NCBI GenBank assembly: GCA_041666045.1 | Contig: JBAYHR010000001.1 | Coordinates: 21,107-85,106, forward strand | Source of the DNA: Minisyncoccota bacterium | GTDB lineage: Bacteria; Patescibacteriota; Minisyncoccia; Phycocordibacterales; UBA9973 | Direction of reading: 5' to 3' | Length of the DNA: 64,000 nucleotides | In this document: positions 2,007 through 43,741 of the stretch, piece by piece | Position numbering within the stretch: the stretch's first letter is position 1 | Layout: each line of letters starts with the position of its first letter | Program-made: the position numbers and the translations under genes | Notes under the pieces: generated by a model | What the model was told of the DNA's origin: nothing | Databases searched by the model: none | What the model saw: the letters and a program-made list of their open reading frames with translations, nothing else

Positions 2007-3296
2007 ATGAAAGGAAATTTTCAAACAATAATTATAATTACATTTATAGCCTTAGCGGTTTTTGGTGTTTTGGTTTTTTCTGGAGCTATAAAAATTGGAA
2101 GTGATAATCAATCTGGAGCATTAGGCACTGTTACATTATGGGGGACTGTAAAAGTGGATGTAATTGCATCAGCGCTTGATGATTTTAATCGTGTCAATAA
2201 AACTTTTATTGTGAAGTATGTTCAAAAATATCCAGAAACTTTTGACCAAGATTTACTTGAAGCATTAGCCTCAGGTCAAGGTCCAGATATGTTTTTCTTA
2301 CCTGATAATTTAGTCTTTAATTATAAAAATAAAATTTATCCTATTCCTTATCAAAGTTTGCCTGTTGCAACATTTGAAAATAGTTTTGCTTCAGCTGGAG
2401 AAGTATTTTTGACTTCAAAAGGTGTTTTGGCTTTTCCTATAGCAATTGATCCTATGGTTATGTATTATAACAGAAGCATTCTTGATGCAAATTCTGTTGT
2501 TTATCCTCCAGTATATTGGGACGAATTTATTAATCTTGTTCCAATTTTAACTAAAAAAGATGAAAATAAAAAAATAATAAAAAGTGGAGTTGCAATGGGG
2601 CAATTTTCAAATATTGACCATTCTAAAGATATAATTTCTATTTTATTTATGCAGGCTGGAAATCCAATTATAACTGAAAAAAATGGATATTTTGTTTCTA
2701 CTTTAAATGAAACTGGGAAATATGACTTAGGTTCTATTTTAAAATTCTATACGGATTTTTCTAATCCTCTAAAAGATGTTTATTCTTGGAATAAAGCTAT
2801 GCCTAATTCCAGTGATGTTTTTAGCGCTGATAATTTGGCATTTTATTTTGGATATGCGAGTGAGCTTCAGACTTTAATTAACAAGAATCCGAATCTAAAC
2901 TTTTTACCTGCGCAAATGCCTCAAATTAAAAATGCCAGTTCTAAACTTACTTCTGCTCGTGTTACTGGAATTGCCATTTCTGCTTTTTCTAAAAATTTAA
3001 ATACCGCTTTTACTGCTGCTGGTCTTTTATCAAGTAGTGATTTTGCTTCTAAATTTGCAAATGCTTTGGGTGTTGCTCCTGCCAGACGTGATCTTTTAGC
3101 TATAAAACAAACAGATGCATATTTACCGACTTTTTATTCTTCAGCTTTATATTCAAGAAGTTGGCTTGATCCATCCTCAAATGATACAGATAATATTTTT
3201 CGTGGAATGGTGGAAGGTGTATTGTCAAATAATATGACAGTTGAAAACGCAGTTAGAGATGCCAGTGCCAAGCTTAGTCTTTTATTAGCCAGATAA
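2007..3296 (+). CDS. extracellular solute-binding protein (ABC-type, family 1-like) with N-terminal membrane anchor
   Basis: N-terminal hydrophobic helix. Size and motifs resemble sugar-type periplasmic binding proteins. No cognate permease is adjacent. Confidence 0.45.
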   Translation: MKGNFQTIIIITFIALAVFGVLVFSGAIKIGSDNQSGALGTVTLWGTVKVDVIASALDDFNRVNKTFIVKYVQKYPETFDQDLLEALASGQGPDMFFLPDNLVFNYKNKIYPIPYQSLPVATFENSFASAGEVFLTSKGVLAFPIAIDPMVMYYNRSILDANSVVYPPVYWDEFINLVPILTKKDENKKIIKSGVAMGQFSNIDHSKDIISILFMQAGNPIITEKNGYFVSTLNETGKYDLGSILKFYTDFSNPLKDVYSWNKAMPNSSDVFSADNLAFYFGYASELQTLINKNPNLNFLPAQMPQIKNASSKLTSARVTGIAISAFSKNLNTAFTAAGLLSSSDFASKFANALGVAPARRDLLAIKQTDAYLPTFYSSALYSRSWLDPSSNDTDNIFRGMVEGVLSNNMTVENAVRDASAKLSLLLAR

Positions 3297-7928: not shown

Positions 7929-8738
7929 TTAATTTCTGTGTCCATAGTAACTGTTGTTACCATTTCCACTAGAATGGTTATTGCTGTATCCATTACCATG
8001 ATTATGGCTACAATTTCCACCATAATGGTTTGAATAAGAACTTGCCCCGAATGGAGCTGTTACAACTTTTTGAATACTATAACCACCATATCGTTGATAG
8101 TTGTTGCGATAATAAATTGGTGGATCTGGTATAAAAACTGCACCAGTTCTAACTGTAACTTGTTTTCCGTAAACAATGTTTTCTTGTTGGTAGTTTTGAT
8201 TGTTAATAGAATTATTTTCATTAACGTAAACTTTCCCAACATTGTCATTGTTTACATTTGCATTAGTTTCTTGTTTGGGTATTTTTATTTTTTCAACTCT
8301 TGTTACGGGTACTGCGAGAATATTTCCGCATTTACTTCTTATTATAATAATTGAAAATGTTCCAATTCTGAAGACCCATGCAAACTCACTACCAGTAGGA
8401 TTTTTATGCCCGATGCTTTGGACAATTTTTTTAGTTTTAGGATCCCATCCAGAATTCATATAACCACCTTCTTCTAAATAAACTTCTTCAAGATAAAGAT
8501 GATTAAAGATTTCATTTATTCTAGTATTAGAAACTTTAAATATTGTATCTTTTAATCCAGCATTTATGTTTTCAATAAGAGAATTTCTGAATGCGAAACC
8601 TTTTGCAGTTTCTTGGAAAGCTAATTCTTTTAATTCTTCTTTTGAAGGAGAATTATATTTTGGAAAAATAGCTTGTACTTGTCCAAAAGAGCTGAGCTCG
8701 ATCCCAAAAAGGAGAGCAAAAATAATTAAATTTTTCAT
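7929..8738 (-). CDS. secreted protein with G/N/Y/H/S-rich C-terminal tail
   Basis: Signal peptide MKNLIIFALLFGIELSSFGQVQA. C-terminal low-complexity HNHGNGYSNNHSSGNGNNSYYGHRN. Confidence 0.4.
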   Translation of the reverse strand: MKNLIIFALLFGIELSSFGQVQAIFPKYNSPSKEELKELAFQETAKGFAFRNSLIENINAGLKDTIFKVSNTRINEIFNHLYLEEVYLEEGGYMNSGWDPKTKKIVQSIGHKNPTGSEFAWVFRIGTFSIIIIRSKCGNILAVPVTRVEKIKIPKQETNANVNNDNVGKVYVNENNSINNQNYQQENIVYGKQVTVRTGAVFIPDPPIYYRNNYQRYGGYSIQKVVTAPFGASSYSNHYGGNCSHNHGNGYSNNHSSGNGNNSYYGHRN

Positions 8739-8841
8739 ATTTTTTAGGTTTTAATTTGTTTACTTTAAAAGCCAAAATTTAGCATCTAAAATAAACAAAC
8801 TAAAACTTAATATTTTTCAAACAACTTATTTATCTGCCTAA

Positions 8842-8870
8842 AGTATATCACATAGAAACTAAAAAGTCAA
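8842..8870 (-). promoter_or_regulatory. sigma70-type promoter TTGACT-N17-TATACT overlapping a terminator hairpin
   Basis: Minus-strand sequence TTGACTTTTTAGTTTCTATGTGATATACT. The hairpin aaaaagtcaacccttttggttgacttttt (8861-8889) terminates the upstream gene. Confidence 0.5.
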
Positions 8871-8911
8871 CCCTTTTGGTTGACTTTTTAGTGTTAATTA
8901 TAAGATTGTTT

Positions 8912-9661
8912 TTATTCGTGTTTTAATGGTGTTTCTTTATATTTTTCATCTTTTTTGTAAGCTTTCCTGAATAATATAACTCCTAAGAAAACTAAGACTA
9001 AAAGCATAAGCCATTGAATGAAACTTTTTGGCATAAATCCATTGTCACCGAATATTGCATTAGCTGCGAGATTACTATTGTTCTTTTCTCTGTCGTTAAA
9101 GGTTATAGAATTTGAAGTACCTCCACCTGGAGCAGGGTTAAATACGGTTATGGTAATTGGCTTACCACTGGATAAATCTTCTTTTGTTAAATCCATTGTA
9201 AGGATAGTAGACTTAAAACGATTAACTCCATTTATCTTTTCGTAGACATAATTAGTAGTTCTATTTTCACCATTTACTCTGCCTATTGATCCAACTATGA
9301 ACTTTGATCCAGTGACAGTGATAGTTATTACTTCAGTATTTGCGGGTGCTTTGGAAGGGGATATTTGAGAAATAGTAGGTACAGGATTAAGGTATGTTTG
9401 AGTATTTGTGTTTGTATTGTTTGTATTATTGTTTGTATTATTGTTTGTATTATTGTTTGTATTATTATTGTTCGTATTGTTTGTATTATTATTGTTTGTA
9501 TTTGGAGAAATATGATTATAATCATTTGGATCAAAAGTACTTCCTGAATTAACTGTAACAGTACAATTAGTACAAGCAAAAGCTGGTAATGCAAAAGAAA
9601 ACCCAAAAATAAAGACTAAAATTGCGGGAAGGGATATTAAGTTTTTATTTATTTTATTCAT
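8912..9661 (-). CDS. surface-anchored secreted protein with Asn/Thr-rich tandem repeat and C-terminal TM anchor
   Basis: Real start is the MNKINKNL methionine at 9661. The track ORF extends to 9775 only by running through tRNA-Leu. Signal peptide present. NNTNNN repeat is encoded by a 12-nt tandem DNA repeat. C-terminal hydrophobic anchor followed by KKDEKYKE. Confidence 0.5.
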   Translation of the reverse strand: MNKINKNLISLPAILVFIFGFSFALPAFACTNCTVTVNSGSTFDPNDYNHISPNTNNNNTNNTNNNNTNNNTNNNTNNNTNNTNTNTQTYLNPVPTISQISPSKAPANTEVITITVTGSKFIVGSIGRVNGENRTTNYVYEKINGVNRFKSTILTMDLTKEDLSSGKPITITVFNPAPGGGTSNSITFNDREKNNSNLAANAIFGDNGFMPKSFIQWLMLLVLVFLGVILFRKAYKKDEKYKETPLKHE

Positions 9662-25402: not shown

Positions 25403-26698
25403 ATGCTAGGCCCGTCGGCCTGCGCAATGCTTTTTAAAAGATATTTTGATTCTATGATTAAAAGTATAAAGAAAAAATTAGCTTGCGGTGAGCAAAGTCG
25501 AACCGTTTTTGTTGGAATGTCAGGAGGTGTGGATTCGAGTGTGTCTGCAGCACTTCTTAAAAAACAAGGATATGATGTCGTTGGTGTTTTTATTCGTACT
25601 TGGCATCCAGATTTTTTAAAATGTAACGAAGAAGAAGAGCGTCGCGACGCTATGCGCGTCGCGACGCATTTAAACATTCCTTTTCTTACTTTTGACCTTG
25701 AAGATGTCTATAAAAAAGAAGTGGCAGATTATATGATTTCTGAATACAAAGCTGGCAGAACGCCAAATCCTGATGTTATGTGTAATAAAGAAGTGAAGTT
25801 TGGTGCATTTCTTAAAAAAGCTATTTCAATGGGTGCTGATTTTGTGGCTACTGGGCATTATGCTCAAATTACAAATCACATAGCACATAACATAAAACAT
25901 AAAAAACAAAAAATAAAATATAAAAATGTTACGTGTTATGAGTTATGCGTCTCCTGTGATAAATCAAAAGATCAAGCTTATTTTCTTTGGACTCTAAAAC
26001 AAGAACAACTTTCTAAAATTCTTTTTCCAGTGGGACATTTAAATAAAACAGAAGTTCGTAAATTAGCAAAGAAATTTAAATTACCAGTTGCAGAAAAGAA
26101 AGATAGTCAGGGGATTTGTTTTTTAGGAGCAGTAGATTTAAAAGATTTTTTGAAACATTATATAAAAGAAAAAAGAGGCGAGGTAATCCTCGTTCCGAGC
26201 GAAGTCGAGGAAAAGAAAAAAAATAATGTGATAGGTTGGCATACAGGAGTAGTTTTTCATACACTCGGTGAACGTCATGGTTTTACTATTACTAAAAAAA
26301 GTCCTAATGACGGGGCATATTATGTTGTTGGAAAAGATATTAAGAAAAATATTTTATATGTTTCGCAGAACAGAAATTTTACCCCCTCCTTAGTTAAGGA
26401 GGGGGTTGGGGGTGGTAATTCAAAAAATCACCACCTCGCCCTAAAGGGCACTCCTCCTCAAAAAGGAGGAGAAGAAATTAAATTAAAAAACATAAATTGG
26501 ATTTCTGGAGTTCCAAAAGAAAGTAAAAGTTATAAAGTACAGATTCGTTATCATGGAGAATTTTTGCCTTGTAAAATTAAAATCACTGGGAAAAGTACAG
26601 CTGAAGTTATTTTTCAAAAACCAGTGTTAGTAGCTTCTGGTCAATCTTGTGTTTTCTATGATAAAGATATTTGTTTAGGTGGGGGAGTTGTTATATAA
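25403..26698 (+). CDS. mnmA: tRNA-specific 2-thiouridylase MnmA carrying in-frame insertions
   Basis: PP-loop VFVGMSGGVDSSVSAALL, KDQAYFLW, C-terminal barrel. Likely true start at 25454 (MIKSIKKK). Extra segments include the 26382-26471 repeat element. Confidence 0.8.
   Translation: MLGPSACAMLFKRYFDSMIKSIKKKLACGEQSRTVFVGMSGGVDSSVSAALLKKQGYDVVGVFIRTWHPDFLKCNEEEERRDAMRVATHLNIPFLTFDLEDVYKKEVADYMISEYKAGRTPNPDVMCNKEVKFGAFLKKAISMGADFVATGHYAQITNHIAHNIKHKKQKIKYKNVTCYELCVSCDKSKDQAYFLWTLKQEQLSKILFPVGHLNKTEVRKLAKKFKLPVAEKKDSQGICFLGAVDLKDFLKHYIKEKRGEVILVPSEVEEKKKNNVIGWHTGVVFHTLGERHGFTITKKSPNDGAYYVVGKDIKKNILYVSQNRNFTPSLVKEGVGGGNSKNHHLALKGTPPQKGGEEIKLKNINWISGVPKESKSYKVQIRYHGEFLPCKIKITGKSTAEVIFQKPVLVASGQSCVFYDKDICLGGGVVI
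26382..26471 (+). repeat. GC-rich palindromic element inserted in frame in mnmA (copy A)
   Basis: cccctccttagttaaggaggg ... ctcctcaaaaaggaggag. About 95% identical to the reverse complement of 43406-43493. Encodes KEGVGGGNSKNHHLALKGTPPQKGG. Confidence 0.7.
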
Positions 26699-32500: not shown

Positions 32501-32770
32501 ATGAGTGATCTGAAAAATGAAAAAATTTTAACAGCACATGGTTTTATAACTGAAGCCTTGCCCAGTACTTTGTTTAGAGTAAAGATATCTGCCCGAAATG
32601 CTTCGCATAGCGATGCAGGCGGGGAAGACAAAGTGGAAGGTGAGAAAGAAATCCTTGCTTACCTTTCAGGTAAAATGCGAATGCATAGGATTAAGGTTTT
32701 AATTGGAGATTCTGTTGAAGTGGTTTTAGATCCCTATGGTGGAAAAGGAAGAATAGTTAAAAGGTTGTAA
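32501..32770 (+). CDS. infA: translation initiation factor IF-1 with an ~18-aa in-frame insertion
   Basis: S1 domain LPSTLFRV...LSGKMRMHRIKVLIGDSVEV...GKGRIV. Extra SARNASHSDAGGEDKVEGEK is absent from canonical 72-aa IF-1. Confidence 0.85.
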   Translation: MSDLKNEKILTAHGFITEALPSTLFRVKISARNASHSDAGGEDKVEGEKEILAYLSGKMRMHRIKVLIGDSVEVVLDPYGGKGRIVKRL

Positions 32771-34526: not shown

Positions 34527-35516
34527 ATGCCTGAATATAAAATAATTATGCCTTCTAAACCACGTGTTGTTTTAGAAGAAGGAAATAAGGGAGTATTTGA
34601 AATAGACGGTTTGTATCCTGGATATGGCCATACGTTAGGAAATAGCTTAAGAAGAATTATTCTTTCTTCTTTGCCGGGCGCTAGTATTACATCTATAAAA
34701 ATTGATGGTGTTTCTCATGAATTTTCAACAATGGAAGGAGTTAAAGAAGATGTAATAGTAATAATTTTAAATTTGAAAAAAGCTCGTTTTAAAATGTTGT
34801 CTGATGAATCTCAGGTAGTTACTTTATCAATAAAAGGACCAAAAGATGTTACAGCTGGAGATATAAAGACTGGTGGACAAGTAGAAATTTTAAATCCAGA
34901 TCTTCACATAGCTTCTGTTACAGGTAAAGTTAATTTAAATATTGAAATGACAATAGAGAAAGGTTTAGGTTTCATTGCAAAAGAAGTTTTGCAAAAAGAA
35001 AAAGTAGACGTAGGCACAATTAATGTTGATGCTATTTTTACTCCTATTCGTAGAGTTTCTTATGAAGTAGAAAATATGCGTGTTGGTGACAAAACGAACC
35101 ATAATCGCTTAAGAATTTCTATTGAAACAGATGGAACGTTAACTCCTCGTGAGGCTCTTTCAAAATGTATTGAAATAATGATAAATCAACTTAAAGCTAT
35201 TATTGATTTTAAGGAACCAGAGGAAGAAATTAAAATACCTGCCCGCAATGCTTCGCATGGCGATGTAGGTGGGGAAAAGTCTGACTCTGAAGATAAAAAA
35301 GGAGATGATTTTACTGATGTATTAAAAACTAGAACAGATAGTCTAGATCTTTCTACAAGAACCTTAAATGCCTTAACTGCTGCAAATATCAGAACACTTG
35401 GAGGTCTTGCAAGAAAAAAGAGAGAAGATTTGCTTGAAGTAGAAGGTATTGGAGAAAAAGGAATAACAGAAATAAAGAAAGTATTAAGTAAATTTGGATT
35501 AAACCTTAAGGAATAA
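34527..35516 (+). CDS. rpoA: DNA-directed RNA polymerase alpha subunit with in-frame insertion in the interdomain linker
   Basis: NTD and CTD (HhH TRTLNALTAANIRTLG) recognisable. The linker contains PARNASHGDVGGEKSDSEDKKG, whose DNA matches the infA insert. Confidence 0.9.
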   Translation: MPEYKIIMPSKPRVVLEEGNKGVFEIDGLYPGYGHTLGNSLRRIILSSLPGASITSIKIDGVSHEFSTMEGVKEDVIVIILNLKKARFKMLSDESQVVTLSIKGPKDVTAGDIKTGGQVEILNPDLHIASVTGKVNLNIEMTIEKGLGFIAKEVLQKEKVDVGTINVDAIFTPIRRVSYEVENMRVGDKTNHNRLRISIETDGTLTPREALSKCIEIMINQLKAIIDFKEPEEEIKIPARNASHGDVGGEKSDSEDKKGDDFTDVLKTRTDSLDLSTRTLNALTAANIRTLGGLARKKREDLLEVEGIGEKGITEIKKVLSKFGLNLKE

Positions 35517-42977: not shown

Positions 42978-43595
42978 TTATATTTTTTTAACATTTTCTA
43001 AAAATGCTTTATTTGTTTCTGGGTCAAGTTTATCTGTAACTATTATCATAAGTTCTGTGGAGAGCTCAAGATCTTTTTTGATATTTGTAAATAAGTTTTC
43101 ATAAGGAAAAGGTGAGACCCAAACAGTATTTTTTATACAAACAAAATTTGCTTTCTTTAAAAGATAACGCAATGATTCTCTTTCTGATTTTCTTTCTTCT
43201 GGAAGGTCTAGAATTATAATTCTCCAAAATCCATCCCAAGTAGTTGAGACTAGGGCATCTTCACCTTCGAGTTTTATGCAGTTTAATTTAGATTTTCCTT
43301 TTTTAGTTATTTTCAAATAGTCTTGATTATCCGAATGAACCATTTCAGCGCAACCTGATTCTATTAGATTTTTAACAGAACGGGTTATTGCGTAACCAGT
43401 TTTATCTCCTCCTTTTTGAGGAGGAGTGCCCTTTAGGGCGAGATGGTGATTTTTTGAATTACCACCCCCAACCCCCTCCTTATTAAGGAGGGGAGTTTTA
43501 TTCTCCATTTTTTTATTTAATTCACCAATAGAAATAGCTGGCTTTTCAGCTAATACTTTTAAAATAACCTTTTGTATATTAGGTTTTTTAAACAT
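42978..43595 (-). CDS. PaaX-like winged-helix regulator family protein carrying an in-frame repeat insertion
   Basis: C-terminal W.GFWRIIILDLPEERKSERESLRYLLKKANFVCIKNTVWVSPFP resembles the PaaX C-domain. Start set at MFKK, which follows the TGCTATAAT box. The track ORF begins at 43631. Confidence 0.45.
   Translation of the reverse strand: MFKKPNIQKVILKVLAEKPAISIGELNKKMENKTPLLNKEGVGGGNSKNHHLALKGTPPQKGGDKTGYAITRSVKNLIESGCAEMVHSDNQDYLKITKKGKSKLNCIKLEGEDALVSTTWDGFWRIIILDLPEERKSERESLRYLLKKANFVCIKNTVWVSPFPYENLFTNIKKDLELSTELMIIVTDKLDPETNKAFLENVKKI
43406..43493 (-). repeat. GC-rich palindromic element inserted in frame (copy B)
   Basis: Reverse complement matches 26382-26471 apart from about 4 substitutions. 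Same reading frame and peptide KEGVGGGNSKNHHLALKGTPPQKGG. Confidence 0.7.
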
Positions 43596-43741
43596 AATAT
43601 AAATTATAGCAAATATTAGTAATTTTAACAACTATTTCGCGACCACGAAATACTTGTCAAAAAATTAGGCTTAGTATATAATAGGGCTATTAATTATTAA
43701 CCCTGATTATCGGGTCAGGAAATTTAAATAAAATATATATT

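Follow-up and report, generated by a model that had tools for sequence, protein, structure and literature searches.

To our knowledge, the Rickettsia palindromic elements (RPEs) are the one textbook example of translated selfish DNA in essential genes. The portions of the literature that concern us here describe RPEs as repeated palindromes of about 100-150 bp that lie in frame in unrelated Rickettsia genes (Ogata et al. 2000; PMC10969869, PMC3184786). Here we follow up a possible counterpart in the Patescibacteria, a GC-rich element of about 90 nt that occurs twice in a 64,000-nucleotide stretch of a Minisyncoccota genome (contig JBAYHR010000001.1, positions 21,107 to 85,106; hereafter the window), once in the tRNA 2-thiouridine synthase gene mnmA and once, as the reverse complement, in a gene for a PaaX-like regulator (Table 1). 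An initial annotation of the window had singled out this pair, likened its behaviour to that of RPEs, and knew of no such description for Patescibacteria-like genomes. Both locations were borne out, and full-text literature searches found no description of such elements in the Candidate Phyla Radiation (CPR), Patescibacteria or Parcubacteria. The claim that the element enters open reading frames (ORFs) without disrupting them also holds well beyond the window, as hosts from no fewer than 17 unrelated gene families carry it in frame. We put at about three in four the probability that this is a non-autonomous palindromic family resembling MITEs (miniature transposable elements with inverted repeats), whose copies persist only where they can be translated at permissive sites. 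The likeness to RPEs stands as one of behaviour; it is an analogy, and we do not claim membership of any RPE family.

The cores of the two copies are 96.6% identical, close to the earlier estimate of about 95%, and the pair is the longest inverted repeat that a repeat search found in the window (83 nt, 96% complementary). Two sub-motifs of the element, 21 and 31 nt long, each occur exactly twice in the window and, with up to three mismatches permitted, have no match in 100 dinucleotide-preserving shuffles of it. A covariance model of the element (R1) scored 114 bits for copy 1 (E = 1.5e-23) and 115.4 bits for copy 2, and with its filters off it found no third copy in the 64 kb. The element has a GC content of 50-57%, against 30.5% for the window, and each copy folds into four consecutive hairpins (RNAfold; -54 and -48.5 kcal/mol for copies 1 and 2, z = -7.0 and -7.4), energies that none of 200 shuffles reached for either copy. 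The terminal hairpins remarked on in the initial annotation are both present and make up only part of this fold.

Both copies are in sense orientation and in frame with their host ORFs, and only one of the six frames of the element is free of stops. Copy 1 encodes (T)PSLVKEGVGGGNSKNHHLALKGTPPQKGG(E), at about residues 327-357 of the mnmA ORF, and copy 2 encodes PLLNKEGVGGGNSKNHHLALKGTPPQKGG(D), with KEGVGGGNSKNHHLALKGTPPQKGG common to the two; ORFs and Pfam domains agree with the earlier description of one peptide, in one orientation, inside two unrelated proteins. In a comparison of 72 copies, the two window copies are reciprocal best matches, and copies on the same contig frequently rank high for one another, a pattern that would fit recent within-genome copying or gene conversion.

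The family extends far beyond this genome. A scan of 185,579 species-representative genomes with the exact 3' half-pattern yielded 21 loci, all 21 in metagenome-assembled genomes (MAGs) of Patescibacteria (labelled Nomurabacteria, Paceibacterota, Minisyncoccia, Saccharibacteria or Patescibacteria group), and a metagenome scan with the exact 5' half-pattern yielded at least 116. Neither half-pattern matched anything in the IMG/VR viral collection. Across 669 kb of fetched loci, the covariance model recovered about 87 strong sense-strand copies along with weaker relatives. A peptide search with concatenated frame translations returned two proteins, fragments of TsaD and of UvrB that came from other metagenomes; this search overlooked the window's own proteins, its index not being exhaustive for short motifs. 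Within the collections sampled, the family is confined to Patescibacteria.

Most copies lie inside long ORFs, including 22 of the 23 from the first scan and 58 of the 80 distinct full-length copies. With the element masked, the host ORFs form 17 clusters. Pfam confirmed as hosts FtsK (where the copies lie between the membrane region and the alpha domain), UvrA, RsmA/KsgA, RNase R, Tgt, PurD, MurB, PolA, LigA, TsaD, an FAD-binding oxidase and the PaaX-like regulator, as well as UvrB, TopA and MnmA, each of which has two sites; both UvrB sites are occupied in L040. Two further host clusters have no Pfam match, and UvrC (L020, L022) was recognised as a host by eye only. About 20 copies are intergenic or at gene ends, five of them without an open frame through the element, and PaaX homologs P0021, P0023 and P0024 (DNA in L147) carry antisense copies that are nevertheless in frame.

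Core lengths range from 79 to 111 nt, and all three classes modulo 3 are represented. In the copies within ORFs, the frame is open through the whole element and the downstream frame is kept (58/80 copies), changes in length being compensated so that the frame is preserved. About 52 of these 58 use the same frame (frame 0), which dominates because it is the only stop-free one. In some other copies, the TAA in the loop of hairpin 3 is replaced by TTCG, which opens the 3' half in an alternative frame reading ...LITTSPFGHSSSTRRR in place of ...HHLALKGTPPQKGGE. A further example of an other-frame peptide is ...NSLITTSPFGHSSSTRRR, while antisense copies give SPPFQGG..ITTPNPLLHKEG. The codons of the element are GC-rich, though the host genomes have a GC content of only 30-40%. 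What is conserved is the nucleotide sequence and its hairpins rather than the peptide.

The unit itself is a core of 85-100 nt made up of four consecutive hairpins (Table 1), and we tested its structure on an alignment of 71 distinct copies (A3). Standard pairs occupy 88.9% of the cells, compared with 54-65% when the partners are slid by one to three columns, and 74 cells are changed on both sides, compared with 42.6 in shuffles, none of which (0/500) reaches 74. The stems are thus kept by compensatory change while the loops drift. The stem of hairpin 1 (helix 2) is polypyrimidine/polypurine and holds CCTCC and GGAGG; 92.6% of its pairs are kept, a figure that would be higher but for some 20 sequences whose register is shifted by 1 nt. 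There is scarcely any variation in hairpin 1 or in the 5' arm of hairpin 2, in part because the search pattern fixes them. The outer stem of hairpin 2 (helix 3, 96.4% paired) has one fixed G.U pair (37-71), which is GU in 57 copies and GC in 14. Hairpin 3 (helix 4, 92.1% paired) is the most variable module of the family, with changes on both sides at six of its eight pairs, variants such as GTCC/GGAC, GCTC/GAGC and GCC/GGC, C(TTCG)G loops, and an extended form GCTCCGAC..GTCGGAGC. Hairpin 4 (helix 5) is 99.1% paired and has a compensatory change at pair 99-117, where 56 copies have UA and 14 have CG; the subfamily with CG here also converts the fixed G.U of hairpin 2 to G-C. The 3' arm of hairpin 4 repeats the 5' arm of hairpin 1 imperfectly and in inverted form (CCCCTCCTT vs CTCCTCCTT). 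As the outer hairpins are near-identical polypyrimidine/polypurine palindromes, the core ends CCCCTCCTT ... AAGGAGGAG form an imperfect inverted repeat of 9-11 nt (9 nt with one mismatch).

G.U pairs outnumber A.C pairs by 129 to 28. However, two fixed positions contribute 98 of the G.U pairs, and the remaining 31 vs 28 give no sign of selection on sense RNA over DNA hairpins or the other strand. We also considered whether the AT-rich flanks pair with each other in a closing helix; only 53.5% of the cells do so, which is above random but does not amount to a conserved helix. No Rfam family matched at its gathering threshold, the nearest being the Vg1 ribozyme (25.8 vs 90 bits) and GOLLD (21.9 vs 150 bits); we treat the latter (E = 4e-4) as noise from GC-rich hairpins.

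The clearest view of an insertion comes from the PaaX-like gene. The window's protein probably starts at Met13, giving 205 residues, and then matches P0003 (NCBI WC264_01115, Candidatus Paceibacterota bacterium). The element lies in its N-terminal region, ahead of the PaaX_M domain. Relatives at 78-88% identity carry it, and there are also relatives of 172-180 residues without it; P0008 and P0010 are empty alleles. In an alignment of four syntenic loci (DnaK, PaaX-like gene, ABC transporter; A2), the filled allele equals the empty allele plus the 88-nt core and 8 nt (ATAAAACT), a total of 96 nt or 32 codons. The empty alleles have a single ACAAAAAC(A/T), while in the filled allele the 8-bp repeat stands flush on both sides of the core. 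From base composition, we estimate the chance of such a flush 8-mer match at about 1e-4 per copy, and together the core and its flush repeat bear the hallmark of insertion at a staggered cut. P0004 (filled) and P0012 have flanks that are identical over about 45 and 95 nt around a divergent central segment, which points to allelic replacement by homologous recombination. The same site holds at least five different insert types in different lineages. Separately, the P0012 allele (L143, approximately 3085-3110; P0016 is similar) appears empty apart from a GC-rich mini-hairpin of 24 nt (CCCTCCCTACGGACGGGC..., peptide PPYGRASK), which is inserted five codons upstream of the main site of insertion.

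In MnmA, the element lies in the linker that separates the PRC-barrel, ending at about residue 322, from the C-terminal barrel, beginning at about residue 358. The solved MnmA structures can be aligned to either side of the insert, with about 24 fewer residues between (query 323-378 to chain 280-311). An AlphaFold model built with 82 sequences is of moderate quality (mean predicted local distance difference test, pLDDT, 67; predicted template modelling score, pTM, 0.54), with low confidence in the middle domain. In this model the insert has no secondary structure (pLDDT 26-36, and below 50 across model residues 295-335), and so is modelled as an unstructured, low-confidence loop between domains; mapping the insert onto the protein had been proposed as a check in the initial annotation, which also stated that MnmA homologs lack the segment. 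This is correct for the solved structures, for P0127 and for the closest relative P0124 (80% identical), both of which are empty at the window's site and, with the empty PaaX alleles, mark the insert as lineage-specific. It fails for about 15 of 120 Patescibacteria homologs (362-459 residues), which carry the element at this very site.

These homologs have two hypervariable sites, site A after ATGHYAQ and site B after LYVSQN. The element is at site B in the ~15 homologs just mentioned and at site A in about 6; P0128 and P0152 have it in both places. Many other recurrent peptides are found at either site. Site A of the window's own mnmA is occupied by an AT-rich palindrome that folds at -15.4 kcal/mol, compared with -5.5 +/- 2.1 in shuffles; it is common to P0124 and missing from P0127 and the solved structures. 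Another element, at site A in a Paceibacterota MAG (L034), has a terminal inverted repeat of about 23 bp (AAAAATATAAAGCAGCAGCTTTTT...) and a fold of -36.7 kcal/mol, and peptides of the family that it encodes are found again in many MnmA homologs, at both hot spots.

Table 1. Coordinates of the element, its hosts and further palindromic inserts. Positions are those of the window, except in the last row (locus L034).
Feature	Position	Strand	Description
Host mnmA	25403..26698	+	tRNA 2-thiouridine synthase; PF03054, PF20259, PF20258 (Pfam)
Copy 1	26382-26471	+	GC-rich four-hairpin element in mnmA; C-run begins 26382, GGAGGAG finishes 26471
Hairpin 1 of copy 1	26381..26406	+	ACCCCCTCCTT / AAGGAGGGGGT, loop AGTT (RNAfold)
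Hairpin 2 of copy 1	26409..26437	+	outer stem GGGGTGGT / ACCACCTC, inner stem ATT / AAT, loop of variable length
Hairpin 3 of copy 1	26438..26449	+	GCCC-TAAA-GGGC
Hairpin 4 of copy 1	26451..26471	+	CTCCTCCT / AGGAGGAG, loop CAAAA
Host PaaX-like regulator gene	42978..43631	-	PaaX_M, PF20803 (Pfam)
Copy 2	43406-43493	-	88-nt core, in frame in the PaaX-like gene
Upstream 8-bp direct repeat	43494..43501	-	ATAAAACT, flush with core; putative target-site duplication
Downstream 8-bp direct repeat	43398..43405	-	ATAAAACT, flush with core
Site A insert in mnmA	25868-25957	+	90-nt AT-rich palindrome, 24% GC, in frame, encodes ITNHIAHNIKHKKQKIKYKNVTCYELCVSC
Second GC-rich imperfect palindrome, infA copy	32582-32626		~45 nt, in frame in infA ORF 32501-32770
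Second GC-rich imperfect palindrome, rpoA copy	35232-35276		~45 nt, in frame in rpoA ORF 34527-35516
L034 element, mnmA site A	8236-8343	-	108 nt, in frame, encodes KQQLFHGSHSNLETIEEHTVAYAEKSSALYF

The MnmA and PaaX sites are hypervariable insertion hot spots, and at least three of the other insert families found there are palindromic. Unrelated peptides recur at the PaaX-like (P0003-P0122) and MnmA (P0123-P0242) sites, among them EKSTDIFLLKNSSCSRQSRSQVSF, KNFPAFALGDKRQGTHGSLNFSNF, FSSLRPSPEYRGGTLGKLKI, PPLVRGGK..PPDKGDLGG and SPTPLLTKERGEGV, which suggests that there are many more in-frame element families in Patescibacteria.

Degraded copies of the element are also common. In low-GC contigs, about 49 matches to the 5' pattern have no 3' hairpins, and L092 is a deletion between two GGGGGTG repeats. 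In the FtsK gene of L026, a second, permuted partial copy (8835-8918) consists of the 3' half followed by the 5' half (PPRPSGTPPQRGGE + APLLNKEGVEGGV), an arrangement that suggests tandem copies cut down by internal deletion. A short form (hairpin 1 + GGGGGTGGTGATAAAAAATCAC) occurs as two direct intergenic copies 4.3 kb apart in L078 (5246-5334 and 9567-9669) and again in L121 (near 12800, plus-strand coordinate); these short forms may be terminators or segment boundaries.

As it lies in frame in unrelated genes across Patescibacteria, the element is probably a translated repeat, and its history can be pictured as follows. It would insert as DNA at a staggered cut in the manner of MITEs, with the transposase supplied in trans; its only open frame encodes the 30-residue peptide, and it encodes no transposase of its own. 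In gene-dense genomes most insertions would hit genes, and the distribution displays the filter that would then operate: a copy would be kept only if the added length preserves the frame, if the traversed frame is free of stops, and if the site is a permissive loop or an inter-domain linker, with other frames becoming available after loop changes. Translation of the copies that pass this filter would give the host protein an extra stretch of about 30 residues, rich in Gly and Pro and probably disordered. The copies would spread between lineages along with their flanks by homologous recombination, of which one apparent allelic replacement is visible, and would be kept alike by selection on the hairpins, gene conversion, or both. 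Finally, internal segments are lost by deletion between similar hairpin arms, as in the derivatives above. Regarding the type of transposition, the element has hairpins at both ends, most copies lack a duplication, and the base ahead of the core is T, commonly within ...CT, in no fewer than 44 of the 71 copies, but the 8-bp duplication at PaaX argues against palindrome-associated elements derived from IS200/IS605.

Several observations weigh against insertion and spread by a mobile element. A clean target-site duplication is found at one locus only, PaaX, and even there the antisense copy in L147 occupies the same position within about 2 nt and has no direct repeat. At the MnmA site, the window, P0124 and P0127 are too rearranged for insertion boundaries to be drawn, and no clean insertion is seen. 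Permutation tests on 72-79 copies found no family-wide excess of flanking direct repeats (mean longest shared word 2.67 vs 2.63 permuted), and a flush Hamming test of the flanks gave no signal, save a marginal z of about 2.5 for a repeat offset 8-9 nt upstream. The true termini may lie beyond the GC-rich core; flanks often show short inverted complementarity (e.g. TTTCCT...AGGAAA), which is longer in some intergenic copies such as that in L135. No autonomous partner or transposase turned up, and in the 4 kb downstream of 49 truncated copies there was no second matching end and no longer element bounded by such ends. In addition, the core is more similar than its 150-nt coding flanks in 71 of 71 orthologous pairs (86% vs 67%), and non-orthologous cores, at an average of 83% identity, are nearly as alike as orthologous ones. 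The comparison of core and flanks is inflated on two counts, since the copies were retrieved with exact patterns of 21-23 nt and orthologous copies that had diverged were missing from the sample. Such conservation could reflect selection on structure, gene conversion or recent spread.

This conservation also speaks for the main rival, namely that the element is a structured nucleic-acid module selected by the host, its mobility being secondary or ancient, with proposed roles in slowing ribosomes at domain boundaries, which would help co-translational folding, in shielding mRNA against nucleases, or in providing proteins of binding, uptake or recombination with a DNA site. Such a module would account for a core that outdoes even flanking housekeeping coding sequence, for the compensatory changes that preserve hairpins 3 and 4, for the frequent C(TTCG)G tetraloops of hairpin 3, for the many copies at inter-domain linkers (MnmA; FtsK), and for sites that are kept across species whose flanks are only ~67-73% identical. 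However, close relatives with empty sites have intact genes, and the same sites hold many unrelated insert families, indicating that the site tolerates insertions rather than needing a structure. Copies also occur in both orientations and between genes, the G.U and A.C counts show no strand asymmetry (31 vs 28), deletion derivatives are common, and the conservation figure is biased by the search method. We therefore consider a host module unlikely. A role at the level of protein, in which the peptide PLLxKEGxGGG...HHLALKGTPPQKGGE would be a linear motif or linker recruited by many proteins, is far less probable still. One peptide does recur in many proteins and is kept in frame, and frame 0 predominates (~52/58), but this dominance is explained by its being the sole stop-free frame. 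Orthologs elsewhere do carry the element, an outcome that the initial annotation thought would indicate a shared domain; yet its unrelated hosts, its use of several frames, its antisense copies with unrelated peptides, its intergenic copies, and its covarying stems with drifting loops rule out a protein domain. Its GC-rich codons are also invariant where AT-rich synonymous codons would be expected, its variation tracks stem and loop positions rather than codon positions, and AlphaFold gives the insert no structure (pLDDT 26-36).

The element might also be an intervening sequence that never reaches the protein, through intron-like removal or ribosome bypass. GC-rich hairpin elements are bypassed in the AT-rich mitochondria of Magnusiomyces, and the fold of copy 1 is very stable (-54 kcal/mol). 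Nevertheless, we regard this as improbable, if marginally less so than a recruited peptide: the frame is open through the element and kept downstream in 58 of 80 copies, length changes are compensated, the TAA of the hairpin 3 loop is replaced, for example by TTCG, where another frame is used, no take-off codon is followed by an in-frame stop, and Rfam introns and ribozymes all fall short of threshold. We likewise rejected a programmed bypass element of the T4 gene 60 or Magnusiomyces type, given that copies within ORFs have an uninterrupted frame and leave it intact downstream. There is hardly any probability that the element is an artefact of assembly or sequencing, for instance a contaminant or a chimera formed at a repeat. 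Although one locus (L001) is a read-sized contig with adapter remnants and uvrB in another (L002) ends abruptly after the element, copies occur on more than 130 independent contigs of up to 362 kb, from many studies and assemblers, and lie in frame in long ORFs; the divergence of orthologous copies keeps pace with that of their genomes, and filled and empty alleles are syntenic. The possibility of an artefact, raised in the initial annotation, can thus be set aside.

The two contigs just mentioned are peculiar in their own right. In L002 (219-340, a JGI contig), the uvrB frame stops eight codons past the element and is followed by very AT-rich, unrelated sequence with small ORFs; the gene may be truncated, the insertion may be a larger one, or the contig may be chimeric. 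L001, an ENA contig, has Nextera adapter remnants at both ends (1-20 and 505-553; CAGATGTGTATAAGAGACAG / CTGTCTCTTATACACATCTGACGCTGCCGACGA) and is essentially a single untrimmed fragment.

Other repeats were seen alongside the element. The window contains a second, shorter GC-rich imperfect palindrome in two copies that are 87% identical, one in infA and one in rpoA (Table 1). The insert in IF-1 (SARNASHSDAGGE) splits the Pfam eIF-1a match, and that in RpoA (PARNASHGDVGGE) lies in the linker of the N- and C-terminal domains. The pattern AATGCTTCGCATRGCGATG is absent from all other fetched loci. A different repeat, found in soil contigs of 55-61% GC, has hairpin 1 and GGGGGTGGTAAT in common with the element and then runs on as CACTTCCTCGCAG, often as two inverted copies about 70 bp apart (L030, L033, L044, L060, L067, L069, L104, L113, L115, L118 and L122). 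A more far-reaching picture, which we consider doubtful, is of a large undescribed set of GC- and AT-rich palindromic families that return again and again to a few hot-spot loops in essential genes and pass between species by recombination of conserved flanks; in its boldest form, the four-hairpin structure is selected for a cellular role. The hot spots themselves can already be seen at MnmA and PaaX. Purely as speculation, the role might be a signal for DNA uptake or recombination in naturally competent, nucleotide-scavenging bacteria, or for translation pausing where domains meet.

If the MITE-like, translated reading is true, the family would be an independent second case of translated selfish DNA, in a very different reduced-genome lineage, suggesting that compact AT-rich genomes, where intergenic space is scarce, generally give rise to such DNA. 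GC-rich four-hairpin modules in AT-rich genomes, spread over a class-level lineage, read in several frames and sharing hot spots with other families, would be notable in themselves. The inserts would enlarge and diversify housekeeping proteins (e.g. MnmA, 362-459 residues) and create hot spots of recombination and deletion. They could also mislead orthology calls, alignments, phylogenetic markers, structure prediction, and binning by GC content or k-mers. On the other hand, stem covariation, filled and empty alleles and allelic replacement would make the family usable as a marker of gene flow and recombination in uncultivated lineages, and a natural experiment on the protein sites that tolerate 30-residue insertions.

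Among known systems, the repetitive extragenic palindromic sequences (REPs) are, in the parts of one account that deal with their form, 20-40 nt long, extragenic and marked by a GTAG or CGTC head (PMC3733652). REPs and REPINs, which are mobilised by REP-associated tyrosine transposases (RAYTs), resemble the Patescibacteria element in being GC-rich palindromes with compensatory stem changes and possible hot spots for further insertions. The Patescibacteria element, however, is about 90 nt long, has four hairpins and no GTAG or CGTC head, and is mostly intragenic.

GC-rich mobile hairpin modules are also found in AT-rich compact mitochondria, as GC clusters in yeast, double-hairpin elements in Allomyces and bypass elements in Magnusiomyces. 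They occupy intergenic regions, variable rRNA regions and occasionally protein genes, and those of Magnusiomyces are skipped by the ribosome. We know of no sequence relationship between these elements and ours. The modular hairpins and the frequent nested or partial copies are shared features, but the mitochondrial elements are organellar and do not belong to free bacterial genomes, and where the Magnusiomyces elements are skipped, the Patescibacteria element keeps an open frame and appears to be translated.

The bacterial MITEs (Correia, ERIC, RUP, BOX, Nezha) are closer in form. Like them, the Patescibacteria element is small, lacks a transposase and has strong predicted secondary structure, a terminal inverted repeat (here 9 nt with one mismatch) and occasional in-frame fusion to ORFs, as well as a target-site duplication, here a putative one at one clean filled/empty site. 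It differs in that classical MITEs are mainly intergenic whereas most of its copies are inside essential genes, that its duplication is undetectable family-wide, that a search within 4 kb of the 49 truncated copies turned up no parent insertion sequence whose ends match, and that its inverted repeat is short and itself part of two hairpins.

In behaviour, the closest parallel remains the RPEs. Both are short palindromic repeats in many copies (here more than 100, with a core of 85-100 nt), in frame in unrelated housekeeping genes of a reduced AT-rich genome; both come in several coexisting families and encode no transposase. Like RPEs, the Patescibacteria element would also add a peptide, at sites that may be compatible with the protein fold, as judged from its placement in MnmA. 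The host phyla are unrelated, and no sequence relationship is expected. Unlike the one long fold-back of an RPE, the Patescibacteria element has four separate hairpins and is strongly GC-rich. It is found in many species across a class-level lineage, shows stronger conservation than the genes that flank it, and is read in several frames and in both orientations, with a putative 8-bp target duplication at one locus.

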